Assembly: GCA_041649675.1 (NCBI GenBank)
Contig: JBAZMQ010000003.1
Coordinates: 5,335-69,334, forward strand
DNA: 64,000 nucleotides
Direction: 5' to 3'
Source: Patescibacteria group bacterium
GTDB taxonomy: Bacteria; Patescibacteriota; Patescibacteriia; Buchananbacterales; UBA6539
Shown here: piece after piece, positions 2,410 to 52,031 of the stretch
Position numbering within the stretch: the first letter of the stretch is position 1
Layout of the letters: the number at the start of each line of letters is the position of its first letter
Program-made: the position numbers and the translations under genes
Notes under the pieces: model-generated
Told to the model about the DNA's origin: nothing
The model's database searches: none
Seen by the model: the letters and a program-made list of their open reading frames with translations, nothing else

Positions 2410-3465
2410 ATGAAAAATTTTGAATTTTTAAAAAAAATGGATTTAAAGCCAATAACGATTCTAAAAATTGCCGGTGTCATTTTGCTGGTAATTATTTTAT
2501 TGGCAGCTACCTTTCGCTTATTGGGTTCGTCGTTTAATTCGTTAATTGGCAGAAGTGATATTAAAGGGATATCGGTTTTTGATAGTTCAAAAGATTATGC
2601 CCTGGAACAAATTGCCGAAAGCAAACCGGCCGCTTATGGCACAAGCGGTGGAGTTAATTTGTCTGTCAGAAACGTTGTTGCTTCACCAAAGATGGTTGTT
2701 GGGCAACCAACGGTCGGTGACGAAGCCGAAGAGTTTGAAGTGACTGAATATAATAGTTTAATTAAAACCCGTCAATTAAAAAAAGATTGTGCCGTGTTTA
2801 TTGATTTAAAGGCCAAAGACTACGTTATCTTTGAAAACGCCACTCAGTCCGAAAAAAATTGTTATTATACCTTCAAAGTTAAAAATGTCCAGGCCGAAGA
2901 AATTTTAGGCGTTATTAAATCTTTAAATCCTAAAGACTTATCCCAAAATACTTACACGATTAAAAAGTTAGTTGACGATTATACGGGTCAGCTAGAAATT
3001 TTGGAAAAGAAAAAACAATCAATCAATGAAACTTTGGATAGCGCTATTAAGTCTTACGATGAAATCACGGCTTTAGCCACTAGAACTCAGGATGCGGCCA
3101 GCTTGGCAAAAATTATTGATAGCAAGATAAACATTATTGAGCGCTTAACGCAGGAACGGATTAATGTTAACGAGCAGATTGATTTATTAAGTCGTTCCAA
3201 ATCCGAGCAGCTTGATCGGTTGGAATACACTTATTTTTATGTCAGTCTTATTGAAGATAAATATGTTGACCTGATTAGCTTAAAGGAATCATGGCAAGCA
3301 GCAATTAAAGAATTTGTTAGGGATATCAATCGTGTGGCTCAAGATATAACTGTTAATCTTGTTGTTGTGTTGTTTTACTTGCTCCAATATGCGATTTATT
3401 TTTTCATCGCACTAATTGTGGTTAAATATGGTTGGCAGTTGGCAAAGTATATCTGGAAAAAATAG
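2410..3465 (+). CDS. hypothetical membrane-anchored coiled-coil protein
   Basis: N-terminal transmembrane segment, long predicted coiled-coil middle, C-terminal hydrophobic segment. No family recognised. Confidence 0.55.
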   Translation: MKNFEFLKKMDLKPITILKIAGVILLVIILLAATFRLLGSSFNSLIGRSDIKGISVFDSSKDYALEQIAESKPAAYGTSGGVNLSVRNVVASPKMVVGQPTVGDEAEEFEVTEYNSLIKTRQLKKDCAVFIDLKAKDYVIFENATQSEKNCYYTFKVKNVQAEEILGVIKSLNPKDLSQNTYTIKKLVDDYTGQLEILEKKKQSINETLDSAIKSYDEITALATRTQDAASLAKIIDSKINIIERLTQERINVNEQIDLLSRSKSEQLDRLEYTYFYVSLIEDKYVDLISLKESWQAAIKEFVRDINRVAQDITVNLVVVLFYLLQYAIYFFIALIVVKYGWQLAKYIWKK

Positions 3466-4604: not shown

Positions 4605-5696
4605 ATGGAGGCTCGAACCTTGACAACGAATAGAATAAAGACCAGAAAGCCAGACGACTGGCACGTTCACTTCCGGTGGGCGTACAATTCAGACGGAATG
4701 CTCTATCGGGTGTTTCCCTACACGGCCTGTTTTTTTGGCCGAGCTCTGCTGATGCCCAATTTAACCGATATGGGTATGGTGGTAACCGCTGAACACCTAA
4801 TCAGGTATCGGAAGTTGGTGCAAGAAGTCCAACAGCACTACCTTCGATATTGCAAAGGAACCAAGTTGTTTGGCAAGTTTTGGACCAGCCAAAGCTTCAT
4901 GCCGGAATTCAGTATTCGGCTGACACCCAAAACAACGTCGGATATGCTTTTGGCAGCCAAAGTAGCCGGAGCAATAGTTGCCAAGGTTTACCCGGACGGA
5001 GTCACCACCGGTTCGGAAGGTGGAATCTCAGACTTTAAGGCTCTGCATCCTTTGCTGCAGGCGGCCGCAGAAATAGACCTGCCGGTTTCTTGGCATCCCG
5101 AGTTGCCCGGGGCACCGCCCCTAACCGCCGAACAGCAATTCATTCCGGTTTTATCCGAGGTGGTAAGCAAGTATCCTGGCTTGAGGATAGTCATTGAGCA
5201 TCTTAGCAGTCAAATGATGGTGGATTTTGTCTGGGGTTGTCCCAAGACCGTAGCCGCTACTATCACGCCTCAGCATTTGATTCTGACTGCCAACGATGTT
5301 TTTGGCCAGCCGCACAACTTTTGCAAGCCAGTGGCTAAACTGCCAAACGACCGCGAGGCAGTAATTGCCGCAGCCATTTCCGGCGATCCCCGCTTCTTTT
5401 TTGGCAGCGATACCGCGCCTCATCCCCGTGCCAATAAAGAAGGTGCTAAGGCTGCAGCCGGAGTTTTTAGTGCCCCAGCTTTGTCAGCCGTTATCCAGGT
5501 GTTTGAAGAAAATCACGCCCTGGATAAGCTTGAAGACTTTTGGTCTCGGTTTGGCGCCGAGTTCTACGGCTTTCCCCTCAATCAAGAAACGATTGAATTT
5601 GTTCGAGAATCTTGGGAAATGCCGCTTGAATGTAGCGGCATCGTACCATTTTTGGCCGGAAAAACCCTGGACTGGCAGGTAGAATCTGTCCAATAA
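4605..5696 (+). CDS. pyrC: dihydroorotase, class II (E. coli type)
   Basis: Near-collinear with E. coli PyrC: DDWHVHFR (E. coli DDWHLHLRD), MPNL, AKVYP, ATITPQHL, FFGSDTAPH, FYGLP, VPFLAG. GC clearly above the window average. Confidence 0.85.
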   Translation: MEARTLTTNRIKTRKPDDWHVHFRWAYNSDGMLYRVFPYTACFFGRALLMPNLTDMGMVVTAEHLIRYRKLVQEVQQHYLRYCKGTKLFGKFWTSQSFMPEFSIRLTPKTTSDMLLAAKVAGAIVAKVYPDGVTTGSEGGISDFKALHPLLQAAAEIDLPVSWHPELPGAPPLTAEQQFIPVLSEVVSKYPGLRIVIEHLSSQMMVDFVWGCPKTVAATITPQHLILTANDVFGQPHNFCKPVAKLPNDREAVIAAAISGDPRFFFGSDTAPHPRANKEGAKAAAGVFSAPALSAVIQVFEENHALDKLEDFWSRFGAEFYGFPLNQETIEFVRESWEMPLECSGIVPFLAGKTLDWQVESVQ

Positions 5697-9277: not shown

Positions 9278-10246
9278 ATGGAAATTTCAGAAATCAGTCA
9301 AAAAATTTATCAACAAATTAAACAAGCTCAAAATATATTATTGATTGCTCATCCGCGGCCTGATGCCGACGCGTTAGGCAGTTTAGTAGCCCTTGGAAGC
9401 TGGTTGGATTTTTTAGGTAAAACTCATACTAAGTTTTGTCTTGATCAACCGGCTAACAGTTTGTCCTGGTTGACTAGCTATCAACCAATTATTACGGATC
9501 CAAATTATTTAATTAGCCAGCAGTATGATTTAATTGTAGTTTTGGATTCAGGTGATTTGAAATACGCCGGGGTTGATAAACTTTTACCCCAATTTTCTTT
9601 TTTGCCACCGATTATCAATATTGATCATCACGCGACCAATCGAAATTTTGGCAGCCTTAACTTAGTTGATACTAAAGCCACTTCAACTACGGAAATTATT
9701 TTTCAGTTTTTTAAAAATTTGAAAGTTAAAATTACGCCCAAGCTGGCTACCGCTTTGTTAGCCGGTATTCTTAACGATACATATAATTTTACCAACCCTA
9801 ATACGAGTTACAAATCTTTAGAAACGGCCTCTAGGCTTTTGCGAGCCGGGGCAATTTTGCCGCAAGTCAGCGATTCAATTTTGAAAAATAAAACCATTGA
9901 TACTTTGCAGATTTGGGGAAAAATTTTGGTTCGTTTGAATCGTAATACTAAATTGGGAATTGTTTCAACCGTTATTACTCAGCAGGATTTGAATGATGAT
10001 TCAATTGCTTCAGAAATTACCGAAGGTATAGCAAATTTTTTAAATAATTTAACCGGAGCCAAGGCAGTGTTAATTTTAGAACAGCAGCCCGACAATATGA
10101 TTAAAGGTAGTTTTAGAACGAATGACGATTTGATTGATGTCTCTAAATTAGCTAAAATACTAGGTGGTGGTGGTCACAAGAAAGCCGCTGGGTTTAAAAT
10201 TAGTGGCAAGCTAATAAATACAGAAAGCGGCTGGCAGGTTATATAA
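9278..10246 (+). CDS. nrnA: DHH/DHHA1 phosphoesterase (NrnA-like oligoribonuclease / pAp phosphatase)
   Basis: Motifs AHPRPDADALGS, IDHH and GGGGHKKAAGF. Confidence 0.8.
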   Translation: MEISEISQKIYQQIKQAQNILLIAHPRPDADALGSLVALGSWLDFLGKTHTKFCLDQPANSLSWLTSYQPIITDPNYLISQQYDLIVVLDSGDLKYAGVDKLLPQFSFLPPIINIDHHATNRNFGSLNLVDTKATSTTEIIFQFFKNLKVKITPKLATALLAGILNDTYNFTNPNTSYKSLETASRLLRAGAILPQVSDSILKNKTIDTLQIWGKILVRLNRNTKLGIVSTVITQQDLNDDSIASEITEGIANFLNNLTGAKAVLILEQQPDNMIKGSFRTNDDLIDVSKLAKILGGGGHKKAAGFKISGKLINTESGWQVI

Positions 10247-10280
10247 ATCGAATCAGGAATCGTGAATTATGAATTATGGT

Positions 10281-10316
10281 TTTATTTCCTTAATTCCTAA
10301 TTCCTAATTCCTAATT
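10281..10316. repeat. tandem heptamer repeat (cctaatt, about 4 copies) with an upstream inverted aggaat
   Basis: ccttaattcctaattcctaattcctaattct in the clpP upstream region. Confidence 0.6.
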
Positions 10317-10323
10317 CTAAAAT

Positions 10324-10899
10324 ATGTATCTCATCCCAACTGTCATTGAAAAATCTAATTATGGCGAGCGAGCTTATGATATTTATTCTCGCTTGCTTAA
10401 AGAAAGAATTATTTTTTTGGGTTCACCCATTGATGATGCGGTAGCCAACACCGTCATTGCCCAACTTTTGTTTTTAGACAGCGAAGACACCAAAAAGGAT
10501 ATCAAGCTTTATATTAACAGTCCGGGCGGATCAGTCACGGCTGGTTTGGCAATTTATGACACCATGCAATATGTCAAAGCCGACGTGATGACAATTTGTA
10601 TTGGTATGGCTGCTTCCATGGGCGCATTGATTCTGGCTTCCGGTGCCAAGGGTAAAAGAATTGCTTTGCCTAATGCCGAAATCATGCTGCATCAAGTCAT
10701 GGGCGGCGCCGAAGGCCAAGCCACAGATATTAAAATTAGGGCCGAACATATTTTGCGAATCAAAGAACGAATGAATCAGATTTTGGCTTCTCATACCGGT
10801 CAGTCAATTAAAAAAATTGAGCAGGACACTGACCGTGATTATTTTATGAATTCGGATGAAGCCAAAAAATATGGGATTGTTGATAAGATTATCAAGTAA
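10324..10899 (+). CDS. clpP: ATP-dependent Clp protease proteolytic subunit
   Basis: [16 protein letters not shown], catalytic Ser context GMAASMGA, and MLHQ. Length 191 aa. Confidence 0.95.
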
Positions 10900-10920
10900 T
10901 CCATAGTTTCTATATTAAAA

Positions 10921-10948
10921 ATAAAAACCGGAAAACATCCGGTTTTTG
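10921..10948. terminator. rho-independent terminator (aaaaaccgg-aaaacat-ccggttttt), likely bidirectional
   Basis: Perfect hairpin flanked by A-run and T-run, between convergent clpP and the CSD-like gene. Confidence 0.65.
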
Positions 10949-11027
10949 GATTTGGTAAAAATTATTGCTAATTTTTTAAAAATAAGAAAATCCCGCAAGG
11001 TTGTCGCCTTACGGGATAGGGATAATC

Positions 11028-11810
11028 CTAATGAAACCCATTTTTGCAGTAAAAGAGATAAACCGGCCGCGGGGAGTTATCTTCGTCAACATCCAGCCAT
11101 GCTCCATTTTTTCTAAACTGGAGGTAATGAGAGACAAAGATTTCAACCCTTACTGCAGCACTGGGCGGCGGGATGGTTCTGTCTCTTAGATTCTGCCACT
11201 TGTTTGTTTTAACAAATGAAAGAAGGCTTTCAAAATTGTTACCTTGCCAGAGCACCTCGTCTTTTCCGAGATTGCTTTTTGTCCCGGCCCTGGTGTTTCT
11301 GATTATGCGCCAGTAGGTCGCCTGATTAAGCTTTTCCACCGCTATTTCCAAATTTAATAACCTCGCCCACTTTGTCACTTGAGGCAGCTTGCCTACGTCA
11401 ATCGGCGGCCTGGTGGCCAAAATGACAATTTGGTCTGCCCGTCGGGGGGAAACGAAATCTTGGAAATAAGTCGGTTGGTTGCAGGCCAAGATTTCGAGAT
11501 TTTCATTTGCCCCACCGCATTCAATTCTACGGCAGCCAGAGACATGAAAAAAGTATTGCTGGCCTTCAGCCGACACAAACCCAAAGCCTTCGCCTTGTTT
11601 AAAACGACCATCTTTTCCCGTTGCAGCTTTAAAGCTGTTAACTACAGCAATTTGCCAATCGTTTTGTTCCAATACCTTGTCTACATTTGTCTCAGCCCCT
11701 GCCATTGTTATTGCCAATGCAGTCTCCATATCGATTTCCTTCATCAGGTTAAAGATCCATATATTTTTACAACCCAAATTAAAGTAAGGGTTGACTTGCC
11801 ACCCTATCAC
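11028..11810 (-). CDS. hypothetical protein with a cold-shock-domain-like N-terminal segment, GC-rich
   Basis: GKDGRFKQGEGFGFVSAEGQQYFFHVS resembles the CSD core (KGFGFI...DVFVHFS). The C-terminal ~150 aa are unassigned. The real start may be the internal MKEIDMETALAI. GC is well above background. Confidence 0.4.
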   Translation of the reverse strand: MIGWQVNPYFNLGCKNIWIFNLMKEIDMETALAITMAGAETNVDKVLEQNDWQIAVVNSFKAATGKDGRFKQGEGFGFVSAEGQQYFFHVSGCRRIECGGANENLEILACNQPTYFQDFVSPRRADQIVILATRPPIDVGKLPQVTKWARLLNLEIAVEKLNQATYWRIIRNTRAGTKSNLGKDEVLWQGNNFESLLSFVKTNKWQNLRDRTIPPPSAAVRVEIFVSHYLQFRKNGAWLDVDEDNSPRPVYLFYCKNGFH

Positions 11811-11868
11811 ATTTAATCATTTTTGTCAATGCAAAAACGTAAATTTTGGTGGTTTTAACTTTTAGCCC

Positions 11869-11896
11869 TTGACACCTTTTTTAGATCTGCTAAGAT
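11869..11896 (+). promoter_or_regulatory. sigma70-like promoter (TTGACA, 16 nt spacer, TAAGAT)
   Basis: Consensus hexamers. Drives the transcript that begins about 11903. Confidence 0.45.
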
Positions 11897-11902
11897 ACTT
11901 AC

Positions 11903-12067
11903 ATCATTAACAACTGAGAGGTTATCAAGAGTGCTACTTGCTAAGGGTACTGGCCCAAAAGTAGCCAGCAACTCGGTTTCCTATCTGGAAGCGACAGAGT
12001 GCTAAATCCAGCCCATTAGGGGAAGATAACAAGGATTTTAAAGACTCTTGCCCAAGAGTTTTTTTGA
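11903..12067 (+). ncRNA. candidate small structured RNA or 5' leader (about 165 nt) bounded by a promoter and a terminator
   Basis: GC-rich. Internal pairings gctactt/aagtagc and ccag/ctgg; agagtgcta occurs twice. Ends in the hairpin aagactcttg-ccc-aagagttttttt. A second hairpin (gatcgaaaaaagctaa...ttagctttttttgatc) follows before the next CDS. Confidence 0.3.
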
Positions 12068-12165
12068 TCGAAAAAAGCTAATCTTTTCCCCAAGAAGGTT
12101 AGCTTTTTTTGATCTTTGTATATAGAAGTATAGGTGGATAAAAAAACCAAAAAGGAGGGTCGGAC

Positions 12166-12669
12166 ATGGGCCTTGTTATACAATTTCAACGACGAGCGAT
12201 TGAGGCTTTATTGCCTCATGTAATTGAAAAACCGATTCCGTCCAATTTAGCACTGGGTGCAGTTAACTTTTCTATCAAGGGTGGATCTCGTTTATTTGCC
12301 TTGGGTGTAAGTCCGGGATATGGCACTTGTGCCTCAATCCATGACATGAATGTCTTGGTTCTGGGAGAACAAAGACCAAAGTCTACTCCTTGGCTTCCAG
12401 CCCAACAGCCGATTTGCCATTGTGCCTATGCCGTTTTGTTACGTGACCTAACTAAAGGTGAATATGTGGAATGGTGCAGGTCCAACCTTTATCATGTTCC
12501 CAATCTTTCACAGCGGGTGATTGAAGGATTGCCAACTTCTCAAGCTATTGAAAAGTACATTAGCCGTACGGTCTGCTGTGTTGAGTTACTCCAAGTCGCC
12601 CAAGTCGCCCAAGCGGCTATTACTTGGACAATAATTGGCCATAAGGCTTTTTACGTAGTCCTGTGTTAG
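12166..12669 (+). CDS. hypothetical protein (167 aa), GC-rich
   Basis: Strong RBS aaaaaggagggtcggac before ATG. No recognisable motif. Confidence 0.5.
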   Translation: MGLVIQFQRRAIEALLPHVIEKPIPSNLALGAVNFSIKGGSRLFALGVSPGYGTCASIHDMNVLVLGEQRPKSTPWLPAQQPICHCAYAVLLRDLTKGEYVEWCRSNLYHVPNLSQRVIEGLPTSQAIEKYISRTVCCVELLQVAQVAQAAITWTIIGHKAFYVVLC

Positions 12670-12676
12670 GCATTAA

Positions 12677-12712
12677 CGGGGGAGATTTAATTGAAGTCTC
12701 CCCTCTTTTTTA
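12677..12712 (+). terminator. rho-independent terminator (gggggagat...atctcccc plus T-run)
   Basis: Hairpin followed by tctttttta. Confidence 0.65.
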
Positions 12713-13048
12713 TTTAGAAATAAAGAATTATTTATAAATTGTCAGGCTTGCCAAAAATCAATAAATATGCTAGAGTCTAGAAAGATTCATTTAATTAACA
12801 GAAAAATAGAGAATTAAGTCTAAGAAATTATTCAGGATTAAGAATCAGGCCGAAAAATTGCTTAAATTCCATCATTCTAACTAATTTATTTCGAAAGTAT
12901 ATTATCTCTACAATTCGAAAAATTAGCTTCAAATAATTAAGCTGGCTTTGCTAAGCGCAGTTTGGTTATTCATCTTAAGCCTTTTTAGGCCATCTCAATT
13001 CAAAAAATAATTGCACTTGATTCTCTATCTTTAACCAGATAGAAATTT

Positions 13049-14575
13049 ATGCAAACAATTTATTGGGCAATCGCGCTTTTTTGTGGTGTCATTGGCGGGA
13101 TTGCTTTTGGTTATCAATTGAGAAAGATCTGGGCGGTAAAGCGCAAAGATACAATTGAGACCAAAGTTGAAAATTTAATCAATGAAGCCAAGGCCAAGCA
13201 AAAAGAAATTTTATTGGCCGCCAACGACAAAGCCTTAAAGATTATTGAAGACGCCAAAGTTGAAGAGCGCCAACGCCAACAGGATTTATTACGGGCGCAG
13301 AAGCGCTTGGAAAGCCGCGAATCACTTTTTGATCAAAAGTTATTGGAATTAGAAAATAAAAAACAGGAACTTTTGGAAAAAGCCGAACGGATTGATAAGA
13401 TCAAATCTGAGATTGGTAAAATTAAAGAAGAGCAAATGGCCAAGCTGGAAAAGATTGCCGGTTTGACCCAAGAAGAGGCCAAAAAGGTTTTATTAGACAA
13501 TACCGAACGCGATATTAAAGATGATTTAGTGGTTAGAATTAAAAAATTAACCAATCAAGCCAGCGAGGAATTGGACAAAAAGGCCAAAGAAATTTTGTCC
13601 TTGGCCATTCAACGCTGTGCGGTTTCCCATGCCACTGAAAGCACCACTACGACCATTGATTTGCCTTCTGACGAAATGAAGGGCCGCATCATCGGCCGTG
13701 AAGGCAGAAATATTAGAACGGTTGAGCGCTTAACCGGTGTAGAAATTATTGTTGATGATACGCCTCAAGCCATTACTATTTCGGGTTTTTCGCCGATTAG
13801 ACGGCAAGTGGCCAAGCGAGCATTGGAAAAATTGATTTTGGATGGCCGGATTCACCCGGTAAAAATTGAAGAAGCAATTAACAATGCCAAGAAAGAAATC
13901 GCTACCGAAATTAAAGAAGCCGGTGAAAATACTTTGTATGAATTGGGTATTACTGGTGTTGATCCAAAATTAGTTCAGATTTTAGGCCGCTTAAAATACC
14001 GTACCAGTTACGGCCAAAATATTTTGCAGCACTCAATTGAAATTGCTAATCTGGCAGCGTTATTAGCCGAAGATTTAGGTGCCGATGTGGCCATTGCCAA
14101 AAAAGGTGGATTATTCCATGATATTGGTAAAGCCGTTGACCATGAAGTTCAAGGCAGCCATCCGGAAATTGGTTATGACATTTTGAAAAAATTTGGCATG
14201 CCTGAAGAAATTGCTTATATTGCCCGGGGTCATCATGAAGATAGTCCAAAGACTTTGGAAGCAATTATTGTTAAAGTGGCTGATGCCATTTCCGGTGCTC
14301 GGCCAGGCGCTAGAAAAGATACTTATGAACAATACCTCCAACGGTTGGATGAATTGGAAAAAGTGGCCACCAGTTTTGCCGGTGTGGAAAAATCTTATGC
14401 CATTCAGGCCGGTCGGGAAATTCGCGTCTTTGTTATGCCCGAAGAAATTGATGATTTAGCGGCTTTGAAATTAGCCAAAGAAATTGCTAAAAAAATTGAA
14501 GCGGAATTACGCTATCCCGGTGAAATTAAAGTCACCGTTATTAGAGAAACTCGGATAATTGAATACGCCAGATAA
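13049..14575 (+). CDS. rny: ribonuclease Y
   Basis: N-terminal TM helix, coiled coil, KH domain (GRIIGREGRNIRTVERLTGVEIIVDD), HD domain (LFHDIGKA...H). Length 508 aa. Confidence 0.9.
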   Translation: MQTIYWAIALFCGVIGGIAFGYQLRKIWAVKRKDTIETKVENLINEAKAKQKEILLAANDKALKIIEDAKVEERQRQQDLLRAQKRLESRESLFDQKLLELENKKQELLEKAERIDKIKSEIGKIKEEQMAKLEKIAGLTQEEAKKVLLDNTERDIKDDLVVRIKKLTNQASEELDKKAKEILSLAIQRCAVSHATESTTTTIDLPSDEMKGRIIGREGRNIRTVERLTGVEIIVDDTPQAITISGFSPIRRQVAKRALEKLILDGRIHPVKIEEAINNAKKEIATEIKEAGENTLYELGITGVDPKLVQILGRLKYRTSYGQNILQHSIEIANLAALLAEDLGADVAIAKKGGLFHDIGKAVDHEVQGSHPEIGYDILKKFGMPEEIAYIARGHHEDSPKTLEAIIVKVADAISGARPGARKDTYEQYLQRLDELEKVATSFAGVEKSYAIQAGREIRVFVMPEEIDDLAALKLAKEIAKKIEAELRYPGEIKVTVIRETRIIEYAR

Positions 14576-14579
14576 TTAG

Positions 14580-14612
14580 TTGGTAGCTTTTTAGCTTCTT
14601 AGCTTTTTAGGT
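14580..14612. repeat. tandem tagctt(t/c)t repeats forming the left flank of four-helix-bundle cassette 1
   Basis: tagctttttagcttcttagctttttagg. Its reverse complement recurs at 15045-15070. Confidence 0.6.
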
Positions 14613-14684
14613 AATTGTTCGAACTGTAAAATTATAAGTTTAAATATTCAACATAGCGCGCTTTAATTTTAATTAAATTGCGTT

Positions 14685-15047
14685 ATGGTAAAAATATTCA
14701 CTTATAAAGATCTAATCGTTTGGCAAAAAGCCATGGATCTGGTCGTGGCTGTTTATCAGTTAACTAAAGATTTTCCGCATCAAGAGATTTATGGCTTAGT
14801 CTCTCAAATGAGACGGTGCGTAGTCTCAATTCCGTCCAATATTGCTGAAGGGCGTCGAAGGGGTAGCCGAAAAGATTATCGTCAATTTTTATTAATTGCT
14901 TATGCTTCAGGTTCGGAGTTAGAAACCCAGCTTGAAATTATTAAAAGATTAAATTTTTGTAACAATCAAGATTCTTTAAAAGCAGATCAATTGTTAGATG
15001 AAGTAATGCGAATGCTAAACAAAATTTTAAGTATTCTAAAAAGCTAA
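14685..15047 (+). CDS. four helix bundle protein (TIGR02436 family; formerly annotated as 23S rRNA intervening-sequence protein)
   Basis: DLIVWQKAMDLVVAVYQLTKDFP...IYGLVSQMRRCVVSIPSNIAEG is the family signature. Paralog at 37678-38040. Confidence 0.8.
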   Translation: MVKIFTYKDLIVWQKAMDLVVAVYQLTKDFPHQEIYGLVSQMRRCVVSIPSNIAEGRRRGSRKDYRQFLLIAYASGSELETQLEIIKRLNFCNNQDSLKADQLLDEVMRMLNKILSILKS

Positions 15048-15070
15048 TAAAGCTACAAGCTAAGAAGCTA
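15045..15070. repeat. right-flank repeat of cassette 1 (aagctacaagctaagaagcta), reverse complement of the left-flank array
   Basis: The reverse complement gtttagcttcttagcttgtagctt matches the left flank tagcttcttagct. Confidence 0.6.
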
Positions 15071-48952: not shown

Positions 48953-50005
48953 GTGATGAAATACTTGAACATGGTTGTGATTGCCGCAGTGTTGTTGGTA
49001 GTAATGCCGATTTGGGCCGCGGAAAAAATTGAGGTCAAAGACCCGGCCAAACTTATTCCGTCAATTCAAATTGGCGACAAATTGACGCTTAAGCTTTGGG
49101 GCTTTGCCCAAGCGGCGTATGTTGAAAGCGCGGTACCAGATGAATTTCAGTGGACGAATTTGCGTTTACTGGGAAATTTGGATGGCCAGCGAATTGGCCT
49201 GGGATTTGTTTTCAACTTTGCCGACTTACAGCATCCGAACGGAAATTACGTTCGTGAGTTCTATGGCAAAATTAAGCTCACGGATTCATTGGAGGCAAGG
49301 GCTGGCTGGTTGTTAACCTCGGTGGGTAACGGCGAAGCTTTCCCTGGCCCGCCCAAGATTGAAACGGTTTTGTTTCCTCGGAGTCTGGCTTATGGCCAAT
49401 ATGGTACGGGCCTTCAGCTTCGTTGGAATAAAGAACTCTGGTCAGTTGTGGCGGATGTGACCGGTGACACGTCGTTGCCGTTTAGCGATTCTGGCCGATT
49501 CAAGAATTTGGAATTTTCCGCTCGGCTTAAACGGTCATTTCGTGGCCAAGATCGGGAAGTGGGTTATTTGGGTACATCATTTCAGTATACCCAGACAGTC
49601 AACCGTTTTGGTTTTGATGGCCAGTGGCAGCCGATTAAAGAATTGACGCTGCGCGGCGGTATGTTTTATTCGGACTATGAAAGCCAAAGAAAGAGTAATC
49701 GCTTCGGCGGCTTTCTTCTGGCGGCGTATCGGCCCTTGTCTTGGTTTGAATTGCATACCATGGTTGACCAAACCTCGGATTTGTCTAAAGAGTACGAAGA
49801 AATTCAAAAGCAGAAAGACAAACAAGGCAACATCACCTACAAAAAGGTGACAATTCAAACATCGGACTTAACCAATGTCTATTGGACCAACGGGATTCGT
49901 TTTTTGGGTAAGAATGATCGTTGGTCAGCAACCCTTGATTATGAAATGAATTTGGAAGATACAAAATCAGGTTGGTTGCGGGGTCGGCTCCAAGTTCGGT
50001 TTTGA
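48953..50005 (+). CDS. putative secreted beta-rich protein (porin-like; terminal ...QVRF)
   Basis: Signal peptide (MMKYLNMVVIAAVLLVVMPIWAA), alternating amphipathic pattern, C-terminal aromatic residue. GC-rich. Family not identified. Confidence 0.4.
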   Translation: MMKYLNMVVIAAVLLVVMPIWAAEKIEVKDPAKLIPSIQIGDKLTLKLWGFAQAAYVESAVPDEFQWTNLRLLGNLDGQRIGLGFVFNFADLQHPNGNYVREFYGKIKLTDSLEARAGWLLTSVGNGEAFPGPPKIETVLFPRSLAYGQYGTGLQLRWNKELWSVVADVTGDTSLPFSDSGRFKNLEFSARLKRSFRGQDREVGYLGTSFQYTQTVNRFGFDGQWQPIKELTLRGGMFYSDYESQRKSNRFGGFLLAAYRPLSWFELHTMVDQTSDLSKEYEEIQKQKDKQGNITYKKVTIQTSDLTNVYWTNGIRFLGKNDRWSATLDYEMNLEDTKSGWLRGRLQVRF

Positions 50006-50960: not shown

Positions 50961-52031
50961 TTACAGCCTTACTATCCGGCCAGTTGAAGCCGATTTATAC
51001 ATCGCTTCAATCAATTCTACGGCTGGCCTGCCTTCACGGCCGTCAATAAGCGGGACGCGGTTGTCTATAATGGCCGCCGCGAAATCCTCAATTTGGAGCT
51101 GGTGACCTTTGGTTTTTAAGCTGGCCATTGGGTCGCTTCCGGCTGCTCCGGTTTCGGATTCTTTCTCTTCCATCAATTTTTCAACTTCGGCGTCAACTAG
51201 TTGCTTTTTTTGGAAGTTCCAGGTAACGAGTTTGCCATCTTCAATGACGGCGCGGCCACTTGAACCGTAAATTTCCAGTCTCGCTGTTCCGCCGGGCCAA
51301 AGGGCAGTACTGGCTTCAATCGTGCCGAAAGCACCGTTGGCAAACTTAAGCTGGGCCGTGATCAAATCTTCCGTTCCCAACTCCCGAAGTTTTTGATGGA
51401 CGGCGCATTGACTCTGCGCCCAGACTTGTTTTACTTGGCCCATAATCATTCCGAGCAGGTCAATGTAATGGATTCCCTGGTTCATTGCGGCTCCGCCACC
51501 ATCAAGATTTTTTGTTCCGCGCCAAGCGGCGCCGGTGTAGTATTCTTCGGGGCGATACCATTTGATGTAGGCATTGCCTAAAATGAGTTGACCAAACCGT
51601 CCTTCTTGCAGGGCTTGCCAGACAAGCTGAACAGCTTTGGTGTACCGGGTTTGAAAGATACAACCGAGCAAAACGTCAGACGCATCAGCGGCGGTAATCA
51701 TCCTGTCGATTCTGGCGGTTGTTACCTCCAGCGGTTTTTCGGCCAGAACGTGTTTACCGGCTTTGAGGCAGGTAATCGCAATGTTTTGGCGCAGGCCGGA
51801 TGGTACACAAAGGCAAACGGCCTGGACAGCAGGGTCTTTTAGCATCTTTCGGTAGTTGCTGTAGGCTTTGACGCCCGGATATGTGGCGGCTAGTTTCCGG
51901 GCTCTTTCCAGGATGACATCGGAAACAGCCACCAACTCGGCGTTAGACGATTGGTTGATGGCCGCGGCGTGAACTGGTCCGATATTTCCCACACCAATGA
52001 TTGCAAATCCAACTTTTTTTAACATAGTCAC
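50961..52031 (-). CDS. Gfo/Idh/MocA-family NAD(P)-dependent oxidoreductase
   Basis: N-terminal Rossmann motif VGFAIIGVGNIGPVHAAAI, EKP motif (AEKPLE), C-terminal alpha/beta domain. GC about 55%. Confidence 0.8.
   Translation of the reverse strand: MTMLKKVGFAIIGVGNIGPVHAAAINQSSNAELVAVSDVILERARKLAATYPGVKAYSNYRKMLKDPAVQAVCLCVPSGLRQNIAITCLKAGKHVLAEKPLEVTTARIDRMITAADASDVLLGCIFQTRYTKAVQLVWQALQEGRFGQLILGNAYIKWYRPEEYYTGAAWRGTKNLDGGGAAMNQGIHYIDLLGMIMGQVKQVWAQSQCAVHQKLRELGTEDLITAQLKFANGAFGTIEASTALWPGGTARLEIYGSSGRAVIEDGKLVTWNFQKKQLVDAEVEKLMEEKESETGAAGSDPMASLKTKGHQLQIEDFAAAIIDNRVPLIDGREGRPAVELIEAMYKSASTGRIVRL

Follow-up and report, generated by a model that had tools for sequence, protein, structure and literature searches.

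In a 64,000-nucleotide (nt) stretch of the genome of a Patescibacteria group bacterium (contig JBAZMQ010000003.1, positions 5,335 to 69,334 of the forward strand; hereafter the window, to which all coordinates given without a locus name refer), the plus-strand unit between clpP (10324-10899) and rny, the RNase Y gene (13049-14575), is very probably an operon controlled by an S-adenosylmethionine (SAM) riboswitch of class I (SAM-I, or S-box). On this reading its gene, an open reading frame (ORF) of 167 amino acids (aa) named ORF167, brings the protein family that we call X into the SAM regulon, and the minus-strand gene of the same region, ORF233, is unrelated to it. The source genome is low in GC, and the region carries the NCBI locus tags WC508_01575 and WC508_01580. 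The RNA class is a textbook one, which explains what had looked like a mystery RNA; what we describe is a known class with a new regulon member.

The promoter-to-terminator RNA spans 11903-12065 and, judged from its sequence and predicted fold, is a SAM-I riboswitch that would be expected to bind SAM. The Rfam scan returned a full-length match to RF00162 (model positions 1-108, 36.0 bits, E 2e-5), and the syntenic copy in colinear relatives, L001, L002, L003 and L013 among them, scores 46.5 bits, over the Rfam gathering score of 44.4 bits. The core segments UUAUCAAGAG, GCAAC, GUGCUAA and AGAUAA are all present, and the ligand-pocket nucleotides in J1/2, P3 and P1 (UUAUCAAGAG; GCAAC...GUGC; AGAUAA) are identical to the model consensus. 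RNAalifold and cmscan agree on the four-helix structure. When the window is aligned with L001, a syntenic relative of about 75% overall DNA identity, both sequences retain every one of the 32 nested pairs, and 36 of 36 when the pseudoknot is included; in slid-partner controls pairing falls to 25-45%. Six pairs carry compensatory changes, five of them in distal P3 and one in the L2-J3/4 pseudoknot, where CUGG (11950-11953) paired with CCAG (12008-12011) in the window becomes CUAG paired with CUAG in L001, a G-C to A-U exchange with both sides changed. Because the differences between the two sequences are compensatory, they argue for selection on the aptamer fold. The leader promoter agrees with the consensus at 10 of 12 positions and has a TG extension (extended -10); both hexamers are identical in L001, and the transcript probably starts near 11903.

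A sequence-only reading of this DNA had recognized the promoter at 11869, had offered the leader as either a small RNA (sRNA) or a cis-regulatory riboswitch, and had named Rfam and covariation analysis as the way to check it. Both analyses bear out the riboswitch, of the known class SAM-I, and the sRNA gives way to a terminated leader. Literature searches on SAM riboswitches in Patescibacteria or the candidate phyla radiation (CPR) returned nothing relevant.

Downstream of the aptamer lie two hairpins, T1 and T2, and a ribosome-binding site (RBS; Table 1). The same reading had placed a canonical terminator at 12040-12067; a hairpin with a U-run is indeed there, weaker than canonical, with just 2 G-C pairs, and is unlisted by the terminator scan, which requires 3. 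The second hairpin and the strong RBS that it described are both present. Promoter, T1, T2 and RBS are all conserved in L001 despite 25% DNA divergence: GGAGG of the RBS is kept, and T2 shows a compensatory change from U-A to C-G. The 5' arm of T1, ACUCUUG (12043-12049), is complementary to CAAGAGU (11926-11932) at the P1/J1-2 boundary, and in predicted folds of an RNA prefix cut off at the T1 loop the CAAGAGU:ACUCUUG helix appears for the window and for L001 alike (shuffle fractions 0.003 and 0.02, respectively). It is plausible that this predicted helix is an anti-terminator prevented by SAM binding. T2 offers a similar pairing: its 5' arm and loop complement GGGGAAGAU (12019-12027; 3' side of P4, J4/1 and 3' side of P1), with 9 perfect pairs in L001 (-16.0 kcal/mol, shuffle fraction 0.001) and 8 pairs in the window (-11.3 kcal/mol, shuffle fraction 0.06). 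From these two pairings it follows that one aptamer may gate both terminators, each with one strand of P1.

The mechanism that we propose is as follows. Transcription would start at the strong promoter, and 114 nt of the leader would fold into the aptamer. With plentiful SAM, the bound ligand would lock helix P1 and the J1/2 strand; T1 and probably T2 would then form, transcription would stop, and an RNA of about 165 nt would be left. As that RNA would be a terminated leader, it would not be a free-standing sRNA gene. With scarce SAM, each freed strand of P1 would take up the 5' arm of one terminator, CAAGAGU that of T1 and GGGGAAGAU that of T2; with the terminators blocked, RNA polymerase would read through and X would be made from the strong RBS.

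It is improbable that the RNA serves mainly as a free-standing sRNA, for example one acting in trans as the Listeria SAM riboswitch RNAs do, with ORF167 expressed independently. Such a role would fit the two successive terminator-like hairpins, T2 a strong one, that separate the aptamer from ORF167, and riboswitch leaders that end at a terminator are bound to build up as discrete RNAs. The promoter scan, however, finds no promoter-like site between the aptamer and ORF167, T1 to ORF167 included, and the 52-nt spacer from T2 to the ATG is not conserved, L001 having an 11-nt deletion there. The same aptamer class also stands ahead of a second X gene, at a locus where X follows metK, the SAM synthetase gene (L031, below), and a role in trans would supplement control in cis, not supplant it.

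The placing of X in the SAM regulon draws on this riboswitch and on the family's other genomic contexts. An exhaustive profile search retrieved 191 cluster representatives of X, 134 of them with E below 1e-10. Nearly all homologs are full-length (125-160 aa, typically about 138 aa), and the ORF167 lineage carries an insert of about 25 aa relative to a typical member. The clusters are nearly all from Patescibacteria, with Harrisonbacteria, Saccharibacteria and one metagenome-assembled genome (MAG) labelled Gammaproteobacteria as named sources. The closest relative of the ORF167 protein, at 68% identity, is on contigs colinear with the window. We grouped the X neighbourhoods into 16 distinct genomic contexts. 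X directly adjoins metK on the same strand in 7 of the 16, preceding it in L004, L008, L014, L016, L024 and L029 and following it in L031; the seven loci show both gene orders, and their flanks are of at least 5 different kinds. When 20 loci were compared all against all, metK was the sole recurrent neighbour of X. Other neighbours include tsaD, gatB, miaA, RimK-like ligases and sugar-nucleotide genes. In L031 a canonical SAM-I riboswitch (60.4 bits) and a terminator precede the metK-X operon. Based on two independent riboswitches and the repeated linkage with metK, we place X in the SAM regulon, and its recurrence next to metK suggests that X probably belongs to SAM metabolism as a member overlooked so far. 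Since SAM would switch X off and X is co-expressed with MetK, we infer that X helps to restore the SAM supply: a Patescibacteria-wide cytoplasmic family of about 138 aa, it would act with MetK or just upstream of it.

Several observations weigh against this reading as a whole. With regard to X, metK is missing from 9 of the 16 contexts, and in 8 of the 16 both metK and a SAM riboswitch are missing. The six loci in which X precedes metK have no Rfam SAM element of any class at E below 0.1, and the spacers before those operons, 50-90 nt, are too short for a SAM riboswitch. With regard to the RNA, the aptamer score of 36 bits in the window is under the Rfam gathering score, the covariation is based on just two distinct sequences, and P2 is without a canonical kink-turn (K-turn). 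T2, in addition, resembles a strong constitutive terminator, and its anti-termination is weakly supported in the window, as the shuffle fraction of 0.06 indicates.

The first of these points, together with the varied neighbours of X, would suit a coincidental link to SAM, X being an unrelated housekeeping protein that lies near metK in some lineages. We regard this as unlikely. The chance of adjacency to one given gene in a genome of about 1000 genes is about 0.2% per genome, against which stand the seven adjacencies in both gene orders, metK as the only neighbour that recurs, and SAM-I riboswitches at two independent loci, one canonical and one a variant lacking the K-turn.

A standard K-turn has a 3-nt bulge followed by tandem G.A/A.G pairs. 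P2 of the window holds instead an A-rich asymmetric loop (GCUAA on the 5' strand, AA on the 3' strand), as does that of L001, so that the tandem G.A pairs are lacking and the strand with the larger bulge is the other one. We attribute the low RF00162 score to this departure in P2. In principle the aptamer could be in decay and have lost its response to SAM, which would make the leader a plain structured 5' untranslated region with leaky terminators; the sub-threshold score and the non-canonical P2 are what such a relic might show, and the K-turn has been described as important, even essential, for the L2-J3/4 pseudoknot of SAM-I (PMC3064774). This is very unlikely, given that all core nucleotides are intact and that L001 differs by compensatory changes, the pseudoknot included. 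Moreover, K-turn variants, and even a substitution by a pk-turn, leave SAM binding by SAM-I intact (PMC3651934, PMC3672288), and because such variants still bind SAM we class the window aptamer as SAM-I with a variant P2.

As for X itself, the description of ORF167 as a protein of no known family holds: members of X (102 searched) have no family match in Pfam or NCBIfam, and X has none in PHROGs or PADLOC. Longer homologs contain loop insertions only, with no domain fusions. Over 102 sequences Ser49 is conserved in all and Cys55 in 100, and positions conserved at 90% or more comprise Met1, Gln8, Arg9, Ala11, Glu13, Gly47, Gly51, Gly53, Cys55, Val65, Glu99, Glu140, Leu142 and Tyr163, with G-[IV]-S-x-G-x-G-T-C as the signature motif. 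The pattern is enzyme-like as far as the alignment can tell. Structure prediction, which had been proposed for this protein, gave a confident AlphaFold (AF2) model (pLDDT 81.7, pTM 0.80), for which Foldseek found no similar fold in the PDB or BFVD. A profile search of the PDB with X gave nothing significant, the best match being a terminal uridylyltransferase (TUTase) at E 1.8. A Pol-beta-type nucleotidyltransferase, for which that match was the only lead from the PDB, was rejected. Such enzymes have hG[GS]-x9-13-DhDh with invariant acidic residues and an alpha-helix after GS; in X the candidate Asp57 occurs in 72 of 102 sequences and His59 in 57 of 102, neither invariant, and the model shows a loop, not a helix, at residues 50-61. 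The strictly conserved polar residues and the glycine-rich loop speak for a catalytic or ligand-binding role and less for that of a passive subunit. Most likely, X is a small protein of this kind, an enzyme or a ligand binder, that would work through the Ser49/Cys55 glycine-rich loop together with Arg9, Glu99, Glu140 and Tyr163. Our fullest proposal is a tentative one, to which we give somewhat less than an even chance: X would take part in the SAM homeostasis of Patescibacteria as a hitherto unrecognised player, either a small enzyme or a partner of MetK, its fold absent from the PDB, and in this lineage it would be under a single SAM-I aptamer that lacks the K-turn and gates two successive terminators, each with one strand of P1.

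Some further features of the family were observed. A perfect 9-bp x2.6 tandem repeat (CCAAGTCGC) at 12591-12613 in ORF167 encodes VAQVAQ, and the protein has the same length as its ortholog. A 123-aa variant of X without the N-terminal MxxIxQxQRRAIE helix (L018, L025 and L026, about 2915-3288) is upstream of a gyrB-like gene in the MAG labelled Gammaproteobacteria. A gene for an 88-aa ArsR-type HTH_5 regulator lies directly upstream of X-metK in L008 (61-327), a possible case of control by a protein in place of the riboswitch. In the Harrisonbacteria-type loci L004 (420-776) and L014 (2648-2998) a protein of 116-118 aa and no known family precedes X-metK in a three-gene cluster. Paralogy of X with the upstream 116-aa and 285-aa proteins, raised by a 14-residue BLAST match, was rejected (hhalign probability below 1%). 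MetK beside X is only 349 aa long in L016 (3510-4559) and L031 (420-1469), compared with 384-395 aa in the other X-linked loci. Within the 64-kb window itself metK was not found.

The layout, a structured RNA with the gene for a small protein of unknown family behind it, had also been likened to RNA-plus-protein defence or toxin modules, that is, type III toxin-antitoxin (TA) systems or a retron-like noncoding RNA with its effector. The likeness is superficial and we consider such a module exceedingly improbable. As the sequence-only reading had itself observed, the leader has no tandem repeats and there is no reverse transcriptase (RT). A ToxIN-like type III TA system was rejected because the sole tandem repeat in 10800-13100 is the array inside ORF167, and a retron because neither ORF has a match to an RT, or indeed to any family in Pfam or PADLOC. 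PADLOC and PHROGs gave no matches, no phage or plasmid homologs were found, and the RNA is accounted for by RF00162.

Table 1 Features of the region between clpP and rny (window positions)
Feature	Position	Strand	Evidence
Sigma-70-type promoter of the riboswitch leader	11869-11896	+	Promoter scan; TTGACA, 16 nt, TGcTAAGAT
SAM-I (S-box) aptamer	11919-12032	+	RF00162; P1-P4 four-way junction and L2-J3/4 pseudoknot
Terminator T1	12040-12065	+	Hairpin AAAGACUCUU/GCCC/AAGAGUUUUU and U-run
Terminator-like hairpin T2	12066-12114	+	20-bp stem, U7; terminator scan, inverted repeat I2
RBS AGGAGG	12153-12158	+	7 nt before ATG; read from sequence
ORF167, X member, putatively riboswitch-controlled gene	12166-12669	+	167 aa; homologs, alignments
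Intrinsic terminator ending the ORF167 transcript	12678-12704	+	Scan: 11 pairs, 5 G-C, T-rich tail
Lineage-specific insertion with ORF233, its own promoter region and terminator	10899-11867	.	blastn against L001
ORF233	11028-11729	-	233 aa from ATG 11729; open as 260 aa from GTG 11810
Terminator-like hairpin after ORF233	10990-11017	-	Scan: 11-pair stem, 6 G-C, T-rich tail

The riboswitch and ORF167 are part of a conserved neighbourhood. Colinear relatives (loci L001-L003, L013 and L019) have the order IF2, rbfA, DHH phosphoesterase, clpP, leader, ORF, rny, ymdB. By blastn, window positions 9299-10898 correspond to L001 3029-4660 and 11868-14586 to L001 4718-7427, so that 969 bp in the window stand in place of 57 bp in L001, and we therefore consider 10899-11867 a lineage-specific insertion. 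It ends exactly at the riboswitch promoter, and its edges show no flanking direct repeats and no mobile-element signature.

The insertion carries ORF233, which had been described as a 260-aa protein whose N-terminal part resembles a cold-shock domain (CSD), fused to an unknown domain of 150 aa. The frame is open to that length, and the likely start is the ATG at 11729, favoured by the RBS GAAGGAA and by the NCBI annotation. Among 5.8 billion proteins ORF233 matched only itself, and no homologs were found in phages or plasmids; by these searches it is an ORFan. The CSD-like similarity persists in part. The RNP1- and RNP2-like motifs GEGFGFV and YFFHVS are present 7 residues apart and align with PDB cold-shock proteins and CspB. 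The CSD-like segment is about 45 residues (about 38-85) of a domain of about 66 residues (PF00313), and the Pfam match is sub-threshold, at 12.7 bits with a cut-off of 27 (E 0.12, profile positions 7-32 only). PDB cold-shock proteins gave E 0.25-1.9, and a pairwise BLASTP with CspB gave E 6e-4 over 49 columns. The single-sequence AF2 model is unusable (pLDDT 34). Based on these similarities ORF233 may consist of a degenerate CSD joined to an unknown domain. It is unrelated to the riboswitch, and its adjacency to the riboswitch promoter is accidental.

The whole of 11028-12715 had been read as an island of markedly raised GC, with a horizontal origin proposed for testing. The content is indeed raised, at 43.1% compared with a mean of 38.3% (standard deviation (sd) 2.8) for 1688-bp windows, and since 8% of equal-sized windows reach at least that value the excess is real but modest, elevated and not exceptional. 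ORF233 (46.0%), the aptamer (47.4%) and ORF167 (45.0%) contribute to it; the spacers are 28-35% GC. At third codon positions (GC3) ORF233 is high, at 0.47 (1.8 sd above the gene mean of 0.352, sd 0.066), and ORF167, at 0.377, is ordinary. Compared with the syntenic relative, only 10899-11867 is inserted, so the region does not count as a single island: an acquired origin fits the minus-strand gene only, and the riboswitch and ORF167 are native and syntenic.

Other parts of the window were also noted. The 379-nt spacer before rny (12670-13048; 28.5% GC) can be aligned with L001, and within it are an imperfect inverted repeat of 31 nt (12802-12832 / 13002-13032) and sites that resemble promoters. 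This spacer could serve rny as a long, regulated leader. Between rny and ymdB, a plus-strand gene at 14685-15047 encodes a 120-aa protein of the 23S_rRNA_IVP family (PF05635, E 2e-39) that is weakly bAvd-like. The syntenic relative has just 72 bp in place of 14587-15067, which makes this a second small lineage-specific insertion. Three genes of the window have GC3 of at least 0.50, compared with a gene mean of 0.35 (4605-5696, 48953-50005 and 50961-52031); they encode an Amidohydro_2 protein, a protein without a family and a GFO_IDH_MocA oxidoreductase, and may be other acquired genes.

Riboswitch regulons have repeatedly led to missing transporters and enzymes. Patescibacteria have a minimal, host-dependent metabolism, and most of their conserved unknown genes have no functional lead. 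In this setting two SAM-I riboswitches and seven metK adjacencies mark out a family of about 138 aa without a known domain or fold. The interest that remains lies in this fold-orphan within the SAM regulon of Patescibacteria, in the aptamer without a K-turn and in the tandem terminators. X is a concrete, testable lead, by way of its binding of SAM, methionine or MetK and its effect on SAM supply, and it is relevant to the way in which ultrasmall episymbionts secure their main methyl donor. The leader is a natural SAM-I variant that is useful for work on riboswitch mechanism and engineering.

Compared with cold-shock proteins (PF00313; CspA, CspB), ORF233 has RNP1- and RNP2-like motifs (GFGFV, YFFHVS) at residues of about 43-66 with the right spacing, and its local alignment reaches CspB residue 56. 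Its score, in contrast, is far under the family cut-off; it has 233 aa, with about 40 N-terminal and about 150 C-terminal residues of no known family, and it lacks any homologs and a confidently modelled fold.

The SreA and SreB leaders of Listeria monocytogenes also persist as small RNAs, and SreA acts in trans. Like them, the window leader is a SAM-I aptamer that ends at a terminator and would give a discrete RNA of about 150-200 nt, whereas nothing at the window locus points to a target in trans. SreA is described as a SAM-I riboswitch ahead of a methionine ABC transporter (bioRxiv 10.1101/2024.05.28.596223). X differs from the genes of the S-box regulon (metK, metE, metH, metNPQ and the mtn salvage genes) in that it matches none of their families by sequence or predicted fold, and resembles them in being under SAM-I, and so presumably SAM-repressed, and in clustering with metK.

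With respect to the SAM-I riboswitches used for comparison (the Bacillus subtilis yitJ and metK leaders and the Thermoanaerobacter tengcongensis metF aptamer, RF00162), the window leader is distinguished by the A-rich asymmetric loop of P2 (5'-GCUAA/AA-3') in place of a standard K-turn, by two terminator-like hairpins after one aptamer, and by a most stable predicted anti-terminator that uses the 5' strand of P1/J1-2 and not just the 3' strand. Its host is a Patescibacterium, and the gene that it would control is no known methionine or SAM gene. It shares with them the SAM-I architecture as described in PMC3064774, namely the P1-P4 four-way junction, the L2-J3/4 pseudoknot and the conserved core nucleotides of J1/2, P3 and P1, together with a putative terminator-type OFF platform and the apparent control of a SAM-related gene.

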